A stretch of 64,000 bases of DNA from an uncultured Nanoarchaeota archaeon. GTDB lineage: Archaea > Nanobdellota > Nanobdellia > Pacearchaeales > GW2011-AR1. The notes beneath the pieces are model-generated. The model worked only from the letters and a program-made list of their open reading frames with translations. It had not been told where the DNA came from and searched no databases. Below, piece by piece: positions 6,335 to 18,292 of the stretch (positions are counted from its first letter, which is position 1; each line of letters opens with the position of its first letter). Where the stretch lies: positions 132,944 to 196,943 of the forward strand of contig CAVUQF010000003.1 in assembly GCA_963743615.1 (NCBI GenBank). The letters are read 5' to 3'. A program made the position numbers and the translations under genes.

Positions 6335-6679
6335 TTATCTTATTTTGCTGCCAATTTCAATATCTTTTTCTGGCGAAAGAAGAACCACACTCTTTTCATC
6401 TTTTGTTACCGCGGCAAGAATCATTCCCTGACTTTCAATACCTTTCAGTTTTCTTGGAGCAAGGTTCACAAATAAGATTATTTTTTTATTTTTTAGATCT
6501 TCTTTCTTGTAATAAGGGTTTATCCCCGCACAAACCGTCCTTTTTCCAATCTCTTTTCCAAGATCAATTTCCAGTTTGTAAAGCTTATCTGCACCTTCTA
6601 TATCTTCTATTTTTTTTATCTGCCCAACCCTTAAATCAAGTTTTGCCCAGTCCTCAAAGTTAATAATTCCTTCAGTCAT
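6335..6679 (-). CDS. Stand-alone tRNA-binding OB-fold (MetRS C-terminal domain/Trbp111-like)
   Basis: FEDWAKLDLRVGQI...ADKLYKL...NLAPRKLKGIESQGMILAA; overlaps the metG stop. Confidence 0.9.
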   Translation of the reverse strand: MTEGIINFEDWAKLDLRVGQIKKIEDIEGADKLYKLEIDLGKEIGKRTVCAGINPYYKKEDLKNKKIILFVNLAPRKLKGIESQGMILAAVTKDEKSVVLLSPEKDIEIGSKIR

Positions 6680-8120
6680 TTTCTATCTTGTTAAATAATA
6701 TTTCTCCTTTTTTAATTTTTCCTACTTTGAGAGGTTCCATGATTTCTTTTAGACTTCCATTCTTTATCTTAAAATTAAACTGTTGTGCAATCTTTTCAGA
6801 AGTTGAAGGAATAAATGGCCATAACAGAATTGCAATGGCTTTTATAGAATCTGCAACTTCGTAAAGGACCTTTGTATCTTTTGTTTCCCATGGTTTTTCA
6901 TTTTGTATATATTCATTGCATTTGTCAATAAACTCGAAAATTAAATTTAGTGCTTTGTCAAATTCAAGAGTTTCCATTTTCTTTTTTATTTCACTTATTT
7001 TTAACTCCTTGATTAATTTATTTTCCGTTTTTTTTATCTCATATTTTTCAGCCAGACCTGCAATTCTACGAACAAGATTACCCAGTTTGTCTGCCAACTC
7101 ATTATTATGCCTTATAATAAGGTCTTTTTCAGAGAAGTCTCCATCTTCTCCAAAAACAGTATTTCTAAATAAGAAATATCTTGCAGAGTCAACGCCCGCA
7201 ATTGAAATTAGCTGATCTACGTTAATTACTTTTCCTGCCGATTTTGAAATTTTTTCCTTGTTAAAAGTCCACCAGCCATGTGCAAAAACTTTTCTTGGCA
7301 GTTCAATTCCTGCAGACATTAACATTGCAGGCCAATAAACGGTATGAAACCAGATTATGTCTTTTCCTATTAAGTGAATGTCGGCAGGCCAAAATTTCTC
7401 TCTTCCTTTTATTCTTGTTGCAGAATAATAATTAAGCAAAGCATCAAACCAGACATAAGCTATATGTTTATTATCAAAAGGTAATTTGATTCCCCAATCG
7501 AAAGATGTTCTAGAGATGCTTAGATCTTTTAATCCCTCTTTTATTCTGTTTATTACTTCTTTCCCCCTATAAGATGGGGAGATAAATTCAGGATTCCTTT
7601 TGTATAGATCTAGTAGCTTTTTTTGATATTTTGAAAGCCTAAAAAAATAGCTCTTTTCTTTTAATAGTTCCACCGGTTTTTTGTGAATAGGGCAGCATCC
7701 GTTTACTAAGTCTTTTTCGGTATAATAGGCTTCACATGCAGTGCAATAATATCCTTCGTATTCTCCAAGATAGATATCCCCCCTATCATATACTTTTTGT
7801 AATACTTCTTTTACAACTTTTTCATGTTCTTTGTCTGTTGTTCTGATAAAATAATCATAATCCAAATTTAATTTTTTCCAGGCGTCTTTGAATTTTGGAA
7901 TTAGTTCATCAACGAAATCTTTTGGCGTCTGGTCTTTTTTCTCTGCAGCTTCTTGAATCTTTTTTCCATGTTCATCTGTTCCTGTAAGGAAGAAGACATC
8001 ATTCCCAAGAAGCTTATTCCATCTAGCTAAAATATCTGCAGCTATGGTAGTATAAGCATGACCAATGTGGGGTATATCATTTGGATAATAGATCGGTGTA
8101 GTTACATAAAATTTTTTCAT
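6672..8120 (-). CDS. metG: Methionine--tRNA ligase (short, single Zn-knuckle type)
   Basis: YVTTPIYYPNDIPHIGH, KISKS, CxxC..CPIH knuckle, YVWFDALLNY. Confidence 0.95.
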   Translation of the reverse strand: MKKFYVTTPIYYPNDIPHIGHAYTTIAADILARWNKLLGNDVFFLTGTDEHGKKIQEAAEKKDQTPKDFVDELIPKFKDAWKKLNLDYDYFIRTTDKEHEKVVKEVLQKVYDRGDIYLGEYEGYYCTACEAYYTEKDLVNGCCPIHKKPVELLKEKSYFFRLSKYQKKLLDLYKRNPEFISPSYRGKEVINRIKEGLKDLSISRTSFDWGIKLPFDNKHIAYVWFDALLNYYSATRIKGREKFWPADIHLIGKDIIWFHTVYWPAMLMSAGIELPRKVFAHGWWTFNKEKISKSAGKVINVDQLISIAGVDSARYFLFRNTVFGEDGDFSEKDLIIRHNNELADKLGNLVRRIAGLAEKYEIKKTENKLIKELKISEIKKKMETLEFDKALNLIFEFIDKCNEYIQNEKPWETKDTKVLYEVADSIKAIAILLWPFIPSTSEKIAQQFNFKIKNGSLKEIMEPLKVGKIKKGEILFNKIEND

Positions 8121-8211
8121 CTATAATTTTAGAGGAGCATGTATAAAAATTTAACTAACTTGGAAAGACATTTCCCGAAATATTTTTATAGTTCCTTGAA
8201 TTCTTCTAAAA

Positions 8212-8562
8212 ATGGATTTGAGTATAACTCTTATCGGGGTTATTGTAGTAATTGCTATTATTTGGATTTTTATTGAAATGAAAAGAAAAGGGGTATCCTT
8301 TAAGCATAGATTTGTTGCTATTCTAATAGTAGTTTTGTTGTTGTTTACTTATTTTAGTTTTACTTTTGTTTTGAAGGGTCAGAGTCTGAATTTATCTTCT
8401 TGGGATAGTATAAAAAGTGCGGGTACACTTTACTATTCTTGGTTAGTTTCTGTATTTGGAAATTTTAAAACTTTAACAACAAATGCAATTAGTATGAATT
8501 GGGGTGCGAGCAATTCTACTCTTTCTAATATTTCAGTTATTAATGTCTCAAATTTAAGTTGA
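8212..8562 (+). CDS. Hypothetical membrane protein
   Basis: Two hydrophobic segments, 116 aa. Confidence 0.7.
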   Translation: MDLSITLIGVIVVIAIIWIFIEMKRKGVSFKHRFVAILIVVLLLFTYFSFTFVLKGQSLNLSSWDSIKSAGTLYYSWLVSVFGNFKTLTTNAISMNWGASNSTLSNISVINVSNLS

Positions 8563-9053: not shown

Positions 9054-9167
9054 GCCTCAGTAGCTCAGTTGGTAAGAGCGCAACATTGGTACGCGAGAAA
9101 AATACTTTACTCTTTTCGCCTAAACCCAAAGATGTTGAGGTCCTGAGTTCAATCCTCAGCTGAGGCT
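9054..9167 (+). tRNA. tRNA-Thr(GGT) with 40-nt intron at 37/38 (9092-9131)
   Basis: Acceptor GCCTCAG/CTGAGGC, U73, D-arm GCTC/GAGC, anticodon stem CAACA/TGTTG, T-arm CTGAG-TTCAATC-CTCAG; TTGG (32-35) pairs with intron CCAA as the BHB central helix. Confidence 0.93.
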
Positions 9168-9179
9168 AAAAATTTTAAA
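9157..9179 (+). repeat. 23-bp direct repeat copy 1 (tRNA-Thr 3' end plus aaaaattttaaa)
   Basis: cagctgaggctaaaaattttaaa is identical at 9157-9179 and 9730-9752. Confidence 0.95.
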
Positions 9180-9226
9180 TTTAATGTATCCGAAAAGTCT
9201 TTAATCTCTTAAAATTTTATATTTCT

Positions 9227-9670
9227 ATGAACATAAGGGATTTTATAGTAAAAGCAAAGAAGAGCACATATGCAAGTGGTAAAAAACCTAAATTATTAGA
9301 TGATGGATTTGAAGAATTTTTTTATAAAGAAGAAGATTATGAATATCGAGATAGATATTATGCTAAAGATCCAAGACCTTTTGGTGGAGAAGAAGTTGTT
9401 TGGAAAAAAGGGAAAGCAGTCTGGATTATGAATTATTATGGTTTTGTTTTAGACAATAAAATAGGAAGTGCTACTTTGTATGGCTTCTTAAGAAAAGCTA
9501 TGAGCCTTGTGTCAAAAGATAGCCCATTTAGGGGTGCTAATTTAGAGGAAGGCGATTTTGAATATAAAAATCAAAGCGAGGGTGATATAGCTCGATTTAA
9601 TGGAGTTGAAAGAATTTTCTTTAAAGGGAAAGAAGTTTACAGATTAGAATATCATGGTGGAGAATTGTAA
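9227..9670 (+). CDS. DUF5680-like hypothetical protein (cassette 1 cargo)
   Basis: FIVKAKKSTYAS...YRDRYY...FGGEEVVW....VWIMNYYG...FLRKAM....PFRG pattern recalled for DUF5680. Confidence 0.75.
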   Translation: MNIRDFIVKAKKSTYASGKKPKLLDDGFEEFFYKEEDYEYRDRYYAKDPRPFGGEEVVWKKGKAVWIMNYYGFVLDNKIGSATLYGFLRKAMSLVSKDSPFRGANLEEGDFEYKNQSEGDIARFNGVERIFFKGKEVYRLEYHGGEL

Positions 9671-9693
9671 TTTTTTTCTTAAAATAAATCTAC

Positions 9694-9752
9694 AATAAAG
9701 CCTCAAAAACTAAACTCTTGTTTTGTACACAGCTGAGGCTAAAAATTTTAAA
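9694..9752 (+). repeat. Cassette-terminal hairpin repeat copy A plus 23-bp repeat copy 2
   Basis: aataaagcctcaaaaactaaactcttgttttgtacacagctgaggct; inverted arms agcctca (9699-9705) / tgaggct (9734-9740). Confidence 0.92.
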
Positions 9753-9774
9753 GTAATAAAAGATTGATTACATT

Positions 9775-10329
9775 GTGGATCTAATACTATTAAGACATGT
9801 AGAATCTAAAAGTAATAAAGAAGATAAAGCAGATTCTCAAATGGATAGTGAATTAACTGAGAAAGGCAAAAAGGAAGCTAAAGAATTAATTTCCAAACTC
9901 AGAGGATTGTCAATAGATGTTGTTATTGTCAGTCCATTAAAAAGAACACTGGATACTATTAAACCTTTTTTAGAATCAGTAAAATCAAAACCAAAGGTTA
10001 TTACGAGTAAGCTGACAGTTGAAAGGGATTTGGGGAAATTTACCGGAAGTAAAATGGGAGATTTTCAGAAATACTGCGAAGAAAAAAATTTAGATAAAGT
10101 CTTTCAGAAACCTGAAGGAGGAGAGTCTATTTTTGATATGTATAAAAGGGCCAAAAAGTTATTTTCTTATCTTAAGAAAAGTTATAAGAAAAAGAATATC
10201 TTACTTTGTGGACATAAGAATTTTCTTTTATGTCTTGAAATTGCAATAACTAATAAAAAAATTGAAGATTATTACTCTTATCAGCCACTAGAGACAGGAG
10301 AATTTAGAGAACTAAAACTAAATGTATAA
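9775..10329 (+). CDS. Histidine phosphatase (phosphoglycerate mutase family; cassette 2 cargo)
   Basis: LLRHVES (RHG variant), SPLKRTLDT, PEGGES, CGH; GTG start. Confidence 0.85.
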   Translation: MDLILLRHVESKSNKEDKADSQMDSELTEKGKKEAKELISKLRGLSIDVVIVSPLKRTLDTIKPFLESVKSKPKVITSKLTVERDLGKFTGSKMGDFQKYCEEKNLDKVFQKPEGGESIFDMYKRAKKLFSYLKKSYKKKNILLCGHKNFLLCLEIAITNKKIEDYYSYQPLETGEFRELKLNV

Positions 10330-10375
10330 TAAAAGCCTCAAAAAATAAACTATTGTTTTTTACACTGCTGAGGCT
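10328..10375 (+). repeat. Cassette-terminal hairpin repeat copy B
   Basis: aataaaagcctcaaaaaataaactattgttttttacactgctgaggct; 4 substitutions versus copy A from gcctca to gaggct. Confidence 0.92.
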
Positions 10376-10386
10376 TATTAATTAAT

Positions 10387-10394
10387 TTTATAAA
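10387..10394 (+). promoter_or_regulatory. TATA box (tttataaa) at -29..-22 of ATG 10416
   Basis: Same octamer at the same offset precedes ATG 15813 and ATG 17536. Confidence 0.65.
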
Positions 10395-10415
10395 GTTATA
10401 TAATAGACTAATAAA

Positions 10416-10907
10416 ATGCCAAAAGAAACCAAGCTTGGTTTAGATGAATTGAAGAAAAGGTATAAAGAATTGCAGAACAAATATCATCTTCCAGATTTTG
10501 ATTCTTTAAATCATGATTTTTATGCCGAGAAAATCTCTGAGATTGAGACAGATGTTTTGACAAGAGAGATTAGAAGGTTTATGGCAGATAGGATTTATAA
10601 TTATTTAAGATTTATAGAGACAATACTTAATCCTGTTAATGTTCCGATGTTCATCTTTTCGATTATAAAATCATTAGACTCCTCTGATAAAAAAAAGCTT
10701 TCTGATCTTTATGCAAGATTATCAGAAATAAATATAGAACTGATAAAGTTGGATATAGACTCCAATGAAAAAAAGGATGCAGAATTTATTAACCAGGTCT
10801 ATGAGTCCTGGCAGTCAATAAAAAAAGATCTATCTTCTGTTGTTAATAGGTTTAAGGATAATAAAGAAGTAAAGGAAGATAAGAATAGTACCAGATACTT
10901 TGGATAA
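10416..10907 (+). CDS. Conserved hypothetical protein
   Basis: 163-aa helical ORF (KYHLPDFDSLNHDF...YLRFIETILNP). Confidence 0.7.
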   Translation: MPKETKLGLDELKKRYKELQNKYHLPDFDSLNHDFYAEKISEIETDVLTREIRRFMADRIYNYLRFIETILNPVNVPMFIFSIIKSLDSSDKKKLSDLYARLSEINIELIKLDIDSNEKKDAEFINQVYESWQSIKKDLSSVVNRFKDNKEVKEDKNSTRYFG

Positions 10908-18140: not shown

Positions 18141-18292
18141 GCCCCCGTAGTTTAGAGGCCAAGAATGCGGCCCTCTCAACAGTGATTTTGCCTTGTCGAA
18201 AGGTTGAAATCTAGCATCTCAATGCAACTGCTTTGAGCTCATTTAGAGCTTGGAGAACGGCCGTGACCCGAGTTCAAATCTCGGCAGGGGCA
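18141..18292 (+). tRNA. tRNA-Glu(CTC) with 79-nt intron at 37/38 (18179-18257)
   Basis: GCCCCCG/CAGGGGC acceptor (one C-A mismatch), anticodon stem CGGCC/GGCCG, loop CT-CTC-A|C, T-arm CCGAG-TTCAAAT-CTCGG; CTCT pairs with intron GGAG (BHB helix). Confidence 0.9.

Follow-up and report, generated by a model that had tools for sequence, protein, structure and literature searches.

Tandem single-gene inserts at the 3' end of tRNA-Thr(GGT) in Pacearchaeota

How do two unrelated genes, framed by the same short sequences, come to lie in tandem directly behind an archaeal tRNA gene? The question arises from a first-pass annotation of the window (the whole 64-kb stretch of DNA analysed here), which saw in them integron-like units of one gene each, inserted at the 3' end of tRNA-Thr(GGT). 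Here we describe the units, compare the site with its counterparts in related Pacearchaeota and weigh the ways in which such a structure could have arisen.

The tRNA gene and the two units behind it

The anchor of the array is a tRNA gene on the plus strand (9054..9167), which matches Rfam RF00005 over its full length at 55.8 bits, the anticodon loop being enlarged by a 42-nt insertion. Its exons (9054-9091 and 9132-9167) are separated by an intron at about 9092-9131, the canonical 37/38 position. ARAGORN missed this gene in the window; the anticodon loop TTGGTAA gives GGT and thus threonine, and the orthologous genes of relatives are called tRNA-Thr(ggt) by ARAGORN. The acceptor stem is GCCTCAG/CTGAGGC and the discriminator is T.

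Two units follow immediately on the plus strand, with the lengths and boundaries originally proposed: unit 1 spans 9168..9740 (573 bp) and unit 2 spans 9741..10375 (635 bp). Each begins with the 12-mer AAAAATTTTAAA, contains one ORF, in the same orientation in both, and ends with a 44-nt element. The 12-mer occurs at the two unit starts only, against 0.4 occurrences expected by chance in the 64-kb window. Unit 1 encodes a 147-aa DUF5680 protein (9227..9670, plus strand; Pfam PF18931, E 9.9e-28), and unit 2 a 184-aa histidine phosphatase of branch 1 with a GTG start (9775..10329, plus strand; PF00300, His_Phos_1, E 4.6e-30). Both genes are atypical in composition, with the lowest (0.189, DUF5680) and second lowest (0.200, histidine phosphatase) GC3 among 60 window ORFs. 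The 12-mer lies about 25 nt upstream of the histidine phosphatase gene, apparently where the archaeal TATA box of a leaderless mRNA would sit, and it probably doubles as the promoter of the cargo.

The boundaries of the units are marked by repeats of the tRNA end. The 23-mer CAGCTGAGGCTAAAAATTTTAAA is perfect at both 9157 and 9730, as first noted: the attL-like junction at 9157..9179 (plus strand), made up of the tRNA 3' end and the first 12 nt of unit 1, is found by repeat search to be 100% identical to 9730-9752. The core of the repeat is the final 9-11 nt of tRNA-Thr(GGT), and no tail repeats of this kind are found behind the four other tRNAs of the window.

The closing element, initially put at about 45 bp, is present as AAAGCCTCAAAAACTAAACTCTTGTTTTGTACACAGCTGAGGCT at 9697..9740 and as the attR-like AAAGCCTCAAAAAATAAACTATTGTTTTTTACACTGCTGAGGCT at 10332..10375, both on the plus strand. 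The first copy is recovered by repeat search and family profile; the second is 91% identical to it and is the best match to the family profile in the window. The element is built of AAAGCCT(N)AAAAA(N)TAAAC, a stretch of about 17 nt for which we propose a decayed T-arm-like origin, and finally CTGAGGCT. It combines GCCTCA, the 5' end of the tRNA, with GCTGAGGCT from the 3' end, and finishes as the tRNA itself does. The pattern GCCTCA-N15-45-TGAGGC is found at two places only in the 64 kb, both of them element copies (0.05 expected). An inverted repeat, AAAGCCT/AGGCTTT, lies inside the element, with no evident TSD; because the repeat shared with the tRNA reaches into the T arm, an att site fits the element better than MITE or IS-type ends.

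Past 10375 the sequence switches to tattaatt..., a change of flank already remarked upon in the first-pass annotation. This is the original flank of the tRNA gene (10376..10907, plus strand, by homology and synteny), consisting of a conserved promoter region (tattaattaattttataaag...) and a conserved Pacearchaeota gene of 163 aa. The promoter sequence is common to the relatives L021 and L128. The 163-aa gene has 143 homologues, lies directly 3' of tRNA-Thr in most relatives and is syntenic with it in 64 of 80 species-representative loci.

The tRNA-Thr gene with its two units recurs in independent assemblies from several sequencing runs and is therefore not an assembly artefact. One contig of the same population (L001) carries the DUF5680 unit twice in tandem, with one SNP between the copies and three units in total, so that the copy number of this unit is 1 or 2 within one population. 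This was the only variation seen when the contigs of the population were searched for an empty site, a single-unit variant or an excised circle; contigs that break off at the tRNA end carry no information here, because co-occurring relatives have the same tRNA 3' half. The closest homologue of the DUF5680 protein (79%) is encoded among housekeeping genes, between DUF424 and eIF-1A, and not at a tRNA gene, while other homologues are located close to transposases in variable regions and are not accompanied by the element.

Empty sites and other inserts in related Pacearchaeota

If the units are insertions, relatives should preserve the uninterrupted site, and this is what we observe. The tRNA shares its strand with the 163-aa gene in 52 related loci, and in 36 of these a gap of at most 72 bp separates the two. 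The closest relative found (L128, 82% neighbour-protein identity) lacks both cargo genes and has about 190 nt of non-coding DNA instead. The pair of genes is thus no invariant feature of the lineage, and neither is it the only cargo of the element.

In several lineages that are scattered phylogenetically, the element closes inserts behind tRNA-Thr that carry unrelated cargo, which bears out the earlier suggestion of a family. L044/L104 have a membrane-anchored protein of 168 aa and L101 a membrane protein of 80 aa; the cargo of L102 is a 229-aa ORF on the opposite strand, that of L094 a kinase-like gene and that of L042 DUF5678 with small ORFs. All seven complete element-bounded inserts measure 0.33-1.1 kb, and none of the seven contains an integrase or a replication gene. 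Direct repeats of the tRNA tail amount to 23 and 9 nt in the window, 19 in L101, 17 in L102, 13 in L044 and 10 in L094. Conservation across lineages is confined to the distal end, with no conserved tRNA-proximal arm; since the pattern used to retrieve five members of the family required AAAGCCT and CTGAGGCT, the conservation of these two segments is partly by construction.

Wherever their context is visible, the copies in relatives lie behind tRNA-Thr. In L101 the tRNA is inverted with respect to its neighbours, yet the insert is still 3' of the tRNA, which links it to the tRNA and not to the neighbouring gene. Inverted tRNA-Thr genes occur in relatives as well. In a tree of neighbour proteins the element-bearing loci are scattered, and their nearest neighbours are empty sites. 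Movement between hosts is supported by L044, the element of which has a tRNA-like part (AATCCCCAGCTGAGGCT) that differs from the resident T arm (AAGTCTCAG) and equals the tRNA allele of L038 and L101. Other inserts at tRNA-Thr (L021/L025, L022, L023) have no repeats; the site therefore gains DNA in other ways too, or the repeats decay. At one further locus (L039) an rve-type gene adjoins a tRNA-tail remnant.

The empty sites, the direct repeats of the tRNA tail, the variation in copy number and the atypical composition of the cargo support the reading of the units as insertions, and the element belongs to one family with varied cargo in scattered lineages. Together the inserts look like a small integrase-less family of gene cassettes at the tRNA-Thr of Pacearchaeota.

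Possible origins of the stack

What could be the mechanism for the addition of such units? We lean towards the view that the two form a tandem stack, built at the 3' end of tRNA-Thr(GGT) by site-specific recombination with an enzyme supplied in trans. Each addition would be a conservative exchange between the 3' acceptor segment of the tRNA (...CAGCTGAGGCT) and the matching segment that ends the 44-nt element of the incoming unit, presumably in the form of a circular intermediate. Integration would restore the tRNA, and the element with its tRNA-tail repeat would come to lie at the distal end of the insert. The next unit to recombine with the restored gene would then displace the first one outward, in which case the histidine phosphatase unit would have arrived first and the DUF5680 unit second.

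The action of the recombinase in trans is suggested by the units themselves, which encode none. The original description of the units as lacking an integrase holds: Pfam detects none among 37 window ORFs scanned, five mid-sized ORFs being without any match. The co-occurring recombinase anticipated there is found neither among these ORFs nor beside any element copy in the relatives, and the ORFs bounded by the element encode DUF5680, His_Phos_1, APH-like and DUF5678 proteins and unknowns. Nor are integrases found at loci where the insert is larger or the tRNA is not in view (L090, L080, L035, L053 and others). Viral contigs searched with two pattern versions of the element and with the tRNA 3' end return chance matches in coding sequences or nothing.

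A 4.9-kb contig (L105) carries the element with no tRNA in view; upstream of the element, small ORFs take up at least 1.7 kb. We considered this contig as a small plasmid with an attP site and rejected this reading: the 253 bp that are repeated in it belong to a paralogous gene fragment (96% identity) and not to a circular overlap, and the family of its 668-aa protein is found on long chromosomal contigs, amid housekeeping genes. The protein itself has no Pfam, PHROG or PDB match.

A bolder version of the trans-acting scheme, which we put forward tentatively, is an undescribed cassette system of Pacearchaeota, the recombinase of which would capture, stack, duplicate and exchange one-gene units at tRNA-Thr(GGT) through a 44-nt site that mimics both strands of the acceptor stem. 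The tRNA would then take the role that attI has in integrons. Activity of this system might also be behind the in-place inversions and replacements of tRNA-Thr in related lineages.

Rather doubtful in our estimation, but a serious alternative, is that each unit is what remains of an integrase-carrying plasmid or provirus that decayed at tRNA-Thr, keeping one useful gene and its attR in the manner of a CIME, with no movement of single genes. Integrase-mediated integration followed by decay classically leaves repeats of the tRNA tail and elements accreted in tandem (PMC5704250; tycheposon islands), conservation of the attR-side element alone agrees with it, and deletion would be in keeping with the compact, streamlined genomes of DPANN archaea. 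Larger blocks do exist at the same tRNA elsewhere (1.7 kb in L021/L025, 3.8 kb in L090), and the small ORFs upstream of the element in L105 also speak for decay. Decay, however, would have had to leave inserts of at most 1.1 kb in seven of seven complete cases with no integrase fragment or pseudogene in any of them. It would also have had to produce two window units that are packed very tightly and have the same 12-mer start and 44-nt end around unrelated cargo. Viral and metagenome scans, moreover, contain no full-length parent element or autonomous relative.

It is improbable that the elements are merely internally deleted copies of tRNA-Thr (5' acceptor, filler and 3' end) created by duplication at the locus, the genes having come separately and the repeats only promoting unequal crossing-over. 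Such an origin would account for the presence of both tRNA ends in the element, for a 23-nt mini-version in L060 (AGCCTCAATTCTCAGCTGAGGCT) that resembles a tRNA with its middle deleted, and for a gene-free 129-bp tandem duplication of the tRNA end in L043; plain unequal crossing-over between the 23-bp repeats could also explain the duplication in L001. What it does not predict is that the non-tRNA part, AAAAA(N)TAAAC, and the 17-nt spacing are common to lineages with about 50% identical neighbour proteins, the close relatives of which are empty. The element must then travel with the inserts instead of being made locally each time, and the match of the L044 element to a foreign tRNA allele and the atypical GC3 of the cargo point the same way.

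Least probable of all is a signal at the RNA level, in which the cargo mRNA would end in a minihelix resembling a tRNA acceptor and/or in a terminator, for RNase P/tRNase Z processing or termination of a tRNA-mRNA co-transcript. The window copies can form an outer stem of 7-8 bp that has the sequence of the tRNA acceptor stem (z -2.0 and -3.6), and they contain a T-run, the archaeal termination signal. Members outside the window, however, have a stem of 5-6 bp or none and no T-run, the L102 cargo is on the opposite strand, no Rfam family matches the element, and no other window gene in the 64 kb is followed by a copy, as would be expected of a generic terminator. An origin at the DNA level is also indicated by the empty sites and by the foreign tRNA alleles. 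The T-run in the window's elements probably acts as a terminator for the cargo all the same.

Relation to known systems and significance

Recombination into the 3' part of tRNA genes with duplication of a tRNA segment is familiar from the archaeal integrases of the SSV, pNOB8 and pTN3 types, each encoded by the virus or plasmid that integrates. The pTN3-type integrase is also reported to invert DNA between tRNA-related sequences, a behaviour reminiscent of the inverted tRNA-Thr genes of relatives. No integrase is seen in the Pacearchaeota units.

Tandem stacking at a tRNA gene is documented for integrative elements and for the CIMEs of Streptococcus, in which newcomers insert at the att site that holds the gene end (Pavlovic 2004, Bellanger 2011, in PMC5704250). 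Like CIMEs, the units described here keep attL-like and attR-like repeats without genes for integration or transfer. They differ in host (DPANN) and in size, being single genes of about 0.3-1.1 kb and not kilobases of decayed ICE; the att-side element is 44 nt long with both tRNA ends, and no parent element or integrase accompanies it.

Flexible genes also collect beside a few tRNA genes, including tRNA-Thr(GGT), in the tycheposon islands of Prochlorococcus, where partial tRNA copies lie between elements, elements can be in tandem or duplicated and the host has a streamlined genome (10.1101/2020.12.28.424599). The Pacearchaeota locus is alike in all these respects. Tycheposons, in contrast, span several kb or more and encode a recombinase of the tyrosine or large serine type, in many cases together with replication genes (10.1101/2020.12.28.424599), whereas no such hallmark modules are found in the single-gene inserts or in the 37 scanned window ORFs.

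Cassettes of integrons and CALINs, including archaeal integrons, consist of one ORF and a short, imperfectly palindromic 3' site (PMC9668308). The integron-like label of the first-pass annotation survives as an analogy of layout, one ORF with a 3' site, and not as a statement about the site. Arrays of single-ORF units are present in the window (two) and in L001 (three), with unrelated cargo in one orientation, the L102 cargo being on the opposite strand, and the apparent crossover is at the far edge of the site, as in integron cassettes. The units also resemble CALINs in having no nearby integrase, and since CALINs lack intI too, its absence alone is not decisive against the integron class. 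The element is nevertheless unlike attC. The cores RYYYAAC/GTTRRRY, reported missing at the outset, are absent from both copies and from the seven relatives read, where the ends are AAAGCCT.. and ..GAGGCT, and the length is 44 nt against about 55-140 nt. Nor is the hairpin conserved beyond an outer stem of 5-8 bp across the family: an inner stem is found in window copy 2 only and is absent in L044, L101, L102, L103 and L105. The anchor, finally, is a tRNA 3' end, where integrons have an attI beside intI.

The genomes of DPANN archaea are very small and few mobile elements are recognised in them, so that the ways in which these organisms gain and exchange accessory genes are poorly understood. 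Even if the units are remnants, the locus marks a recombination hot spot that is useful for strain typing, and its att sequence could serve as a probe for the recombinases and integrating elements of Pacearchaeota. Repeated uptake of one-gene units with a common 44-nt end at a site anchored on a tRNA would, if true, offer these archaea a simple path for gene flux and provide a second independent case of integron-like cassette logic, based on a tRNA gene.

Two single-gene units behind tRNA-Thr

Two inserts of one gene each lie behind the tRNA-Thr(GGT) gene of the window (9054-9167, plus strand): unit 1 (9168-9740; 573 bp), which follows the tRNA directly and holds one ORF for a DUF5680 protein, and unit 2 (9741-10375; 635 bp), which follows unit 1 directly and holds one ORF for a branch-1 histidine phosphatase. 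Both start with AAAAATTTTAAA, absent from the rest of the window, and both are closed by a 44-nt element whose two copies share 91% identity. The element opens with AAAGCCTCA, containing the first six bases of the tRNA, and ends in GCTGAGGCT, the 3' acceptor strand plus discriminator. The junction of tRNA and unit 1 and that of unit 1 and unit 2 share a 23-mer, CAGCTGAGGCTAAAAATTTTAAA, without mismatch, and GCCTCA-N15-45-TGAGGC occurs at only two places in the window, both of them the elements (0.05 expected). The first-pass annotation, which had read this as an integron-like array of single-gene cassettes, described it correctly in every detail: coordinates, ORFs, shared starts, element and 23-mer.

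The two-unit structure recurs in several assemblies made independently from different sequencing runs, and neither an empty site nor a variant without one unit was seen in the same population. Variation in unit number appears in one assembly of this population (L001; ENA ERZ25039473 contig_30472), where two copies of the 573-bp DUF5680 unit, differing by one SNP, stand in exact tandem. Compared with window 6672-8212, this contig has NAD_binding_5 and chlorite-dismutase-like genes replacing MetRS upstream of the 116-aa gene, either through strain-level rearrangement or through chimeric assembly.

The GC3 values of the two cargo genes (0.189 and 0.200) are the two lowest among 60 window ORFs (mean 0.297, sd 0.044), a sign of foreignness. 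In another genome the closest homologue of the DUF5680 protein (79%) is encoded between DUF424 and eIF-1A, without the element, and further homologues sit in variable regions. The cargo thus belongs to the ordinary accessory material of DPANN archaea rather than to a gene family tied to the element.

The tRNA gene itself matches the full Rfam model (55.8 bits), with 42 nt inserted into its anticodon loop; the loop reads TTGGTAA, giving anticodon GGT for Thr, and the intron of about 40 nt occupies the canonical 37/38 position. ARAGORN missed the gene at 9054-9167 and called its orthologues in relatives tRNA-Thr(ggt), while a whole-window Rfam run with default filters also missed it, so that it was found only when the region was searched alone. 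Immediately upstream of tRNA-Gln, at 18141-18292, stands a second intron-bearing tRNA that ARAGORN missed (Rfam 41 bits). Within the window allele of tRNA-Thr, CCTCAGCTGAGG (9154-9165) runs across the 3' strands of T-stem and acceptor and is a perfect palindrome of 12 bp with CAGCTG at its centre; since its position coincides exactly with the shared core of the repeats, it is a plausible candidate for a recombinase core site.

The insertion site in related genomes

The gene downstream of the units (10416-10907; 163 aa, without a Pfam family) belongs to a family conserved in Pacearchaeota and related DPANN archaea (143 homologues), from which 40 homologues were aligned and 80 species-representative loci fetched. 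In 64 of these loci tRNA-Thr(GGT) lies immediately upstream of the gene, 52 times on the same strand. The gap is at most 72 bp in 36 of the 52, which is the empty, ancestral arrangement, and the other 16 hold 94-1715 bp of extra DNA. The flank after unit 2 (tattaattaattttataaagtt...), which the nearest relatives share, is the promoter region of the 163-aa gene and is conserved. In the closest relative found (L128; 82% identity of the 163-aa neighbour protein) the same tRNA, intron included, precedes about 190 nt of non-coding sequence, and there is no cassette; L021, the next in order (77%), holds two unrelated genes there, without repeats. Given these two neighbours and the shared flank, the window units are lineage-specific insertions into a site variable across the group, in agreement with the insertion at tRNA-Thr first proposed. 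Several other inserts at this site in relatives likewise lack repeats. The non-coding stretch of L128 (300-490) contains three copies of a cactggcgat(t/a) motif.

Other rearrangements affect the same tRNA. In 12 of the 80 loci it sits at the same position on the opposite strand (L021-L100 set; examples of inversion are L054, L070, L076, L088, L099 and L129), and also in L101, a metagenome locus. Because the inverted cases are scattered in a rough neighbour-protein tree, repeated in-place inversion is suggested; the acceptor stem is a perfect 7-bp inverted repeat. Three loci (L066:4814-4933, L083:4850-4959, L094:3762-3860) have a tRNA-Thr(GGT) of different sequence type and, a few bases downstream of it, a 3' fragment (15-45 nt) of the usual type, as though another tRNA had taken the place of the resident one, whose tail remained. 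Elsewhere, a gene-free 129-bp tandem duplication comprises the last 21 nt of the tRNA and about 70 nt downstream (L043:4709-4940), and two tRNA-Thr genes (L080:2720-2860, L090:1060-1190) appear to be interrupted in the D- and T-arm regions by several introns outside the canonical positions; a ...gggatgacc... motif is shared.

A closing element with variable cargo

Synteny among the 80 loci, free of any pattern, revealed a further element in L044 (54% neighbour identity), where a single gene for a 168-aa membrane-anchored protein between tRNA and 163-aa gene is closed by AAAGCCTAAAAAATAAACCAATCACAAATCCCCAGCTGAGGCT. A pattern from the three copies (AAAGCCT N0-1 AAAAANTAAAC N15-19 CTGAGGCT) matched five places in JGI metagenomes. 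One of these, L104, repeats what is seen in L044. L101 carries tRNA-Thr, an 80-aa membrane protein gene and the element (333-bp insert, 19-nt direct repeat of the tRNA end), and L102 carries tRNA-Thr, a 229-aa ORF on the opposite strand and the element (930-bp insert, 17-nt repeat). L103 is a short contig on which any tRNA would be out of view. In L105 small ORFs surround the element, and within 1.7 kb there is no tRNA; the interpretation of L105 as a small plasmid was rejected, as the large ORF is of a chromosomal family and a fragment of a paralogous gene makes up the terminal repeat. Searching with a profile built from the copies added diverged members: L042 (DUF5678 and two small ORFs, about 0.9 kb), L079 (contig cut), L094 (kinase-like gene, 1.1 kb, 10-nt repeat) and L060. 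The anticipated association of one element with variable cargo is thus borne out by the unrelated genes of L044, L101, L102, L042 and L094.

Between lineages only the distal insert end is conserved, and the tRNA-proximal ends differ. The conserved part not derived from tRNA, AAAAA(N)TAAAC, stands a fixed 17 nt from CTGAGGCT, and this spacer resembles a T-loop plus T-stem that has decayed. The mini-remnant of L060 (3704-3726, minus strand; 23 nt, AGCCTCAATTCTCAGCTGAGGCT), located where tRNA-Thr would be, joins the tRNA 5' acceptor to the T-arm end and 3' acceptor, a possible model for the origin of the 44-nt element. Element-bearing loci are scattered in the rough neighbour-protein tree, their nearest neighbours being mostly empty sites. 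In L101 the insert remains behind the 3' end of the inverted tRNA; the link is therefore to the tRNA and not to the neighbouring gene. The tRNA-like stretch of the L044 element (AATCCCCAGCTGAGGCT) mismatches the T arm of the resident tRNA and is identical to the allele of other lineages, as would be expected if the element came from another host.

Origin of the units and relation to known systems

How might such units have accumulated behind a tRNA gene? With a shared core at each junction, an intact tRNA and an outermost copy abutting the original flank, the anatomy is that of site-specific integration into the tRNA 3' end and of another such event at the site thus rebuilt; this tandem accretion supports the stacking initially proposed. 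A circularised window unit would carry a 56-nt site composed of the 44-nt element and AAAAATTTTAAA. This fits two observations: the first two junctions are identical over 23 bp without a mismatch, and at the third the sequence turns into host flank once GAGGCT has ended. The DUF5680 unit would be the last arrival, and the enzyme would act in trans. AAAAATTTTAAA, which precedes the GTG start of the phosphatase gene by about 25 nt, may double as a TATA-type promoter, and the T-run in the window's elements may serve as a terminator.

The co-occurring recombinase envisaged in the first-pass annotation did not appear: in Pfam scans, 37 window ORFs yielded genes for housekeeping, transport and sugar metabolism, with neither an integrase nor a transposase among them, the cargo ORFs of relatives include no recombinase, and the viral contigs scanned contain neither the element nor this tRNA end. 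A 326-aa rve-type gene (DDE integrase core; Pfam 25 bits, under the family cut-off) occurs at L039:3918-4960, about 50 nt from a tRNA-tail remnant (CAGCTGAGGCT) just upstream of the 163-aa gene, with no tRNA-Thr visible in 5 kb upstream.

On the main rival reading, larger elements with an integrase of their own were cut down by deletion to the present units, in the manner of CIMEs. Such remnants are common in bacteria (PMC5704250). All seven complete inserts are uniformly small and hold no recombinase fragment, which argues mildly against this reading. A purely local origin, through tRNA pseudogene copies and unequal crossing-over, leaves unaccounted for both the shared non-tRNA motif in distant lineages and the fact that L044 carries a foreign tRNA allele. 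The folding of the two window copies weakly favours a role of the element at the RNA level, as a tRNA-like minihelix or terminator; this finds no support in the family, where stem and T-run are unconserved, or in the opposite-strand cargo of L102.

The closest known processes to the proposed serial integration are the tandem accretion of CIMEs, integrase-less att-bounded units, at tRNA genes (PMC5704250), and the tycheposon islands of Prochlorococcus, which use tRNA-Thr(GGT) among other sites and leave partial tRNAs between elements (10.1101/2020.12.28.424599); both differ from the window units in size and in having identifiable recombinase-bearing parents. Integron cassettes and CALINs exist in archaea, including Nanoarchaeota (PMC9668308), and resemble the units in layout. 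The element lacks the defining attC cores, as was noted at the outset, and also the attC fold, and the anchor is a tRNA rather than attI; for these reasons the units are not filed as an integron. No description of such units was found in the literature searched, which is weak evidence of absence. That they represent a true tRNA-anchored cassette system we consider rather doubtful; we file them as tRNA-targeted integrative elements of DPANN archaea, miniature, one-gene and integrase-less, with a shared 44-nt end.
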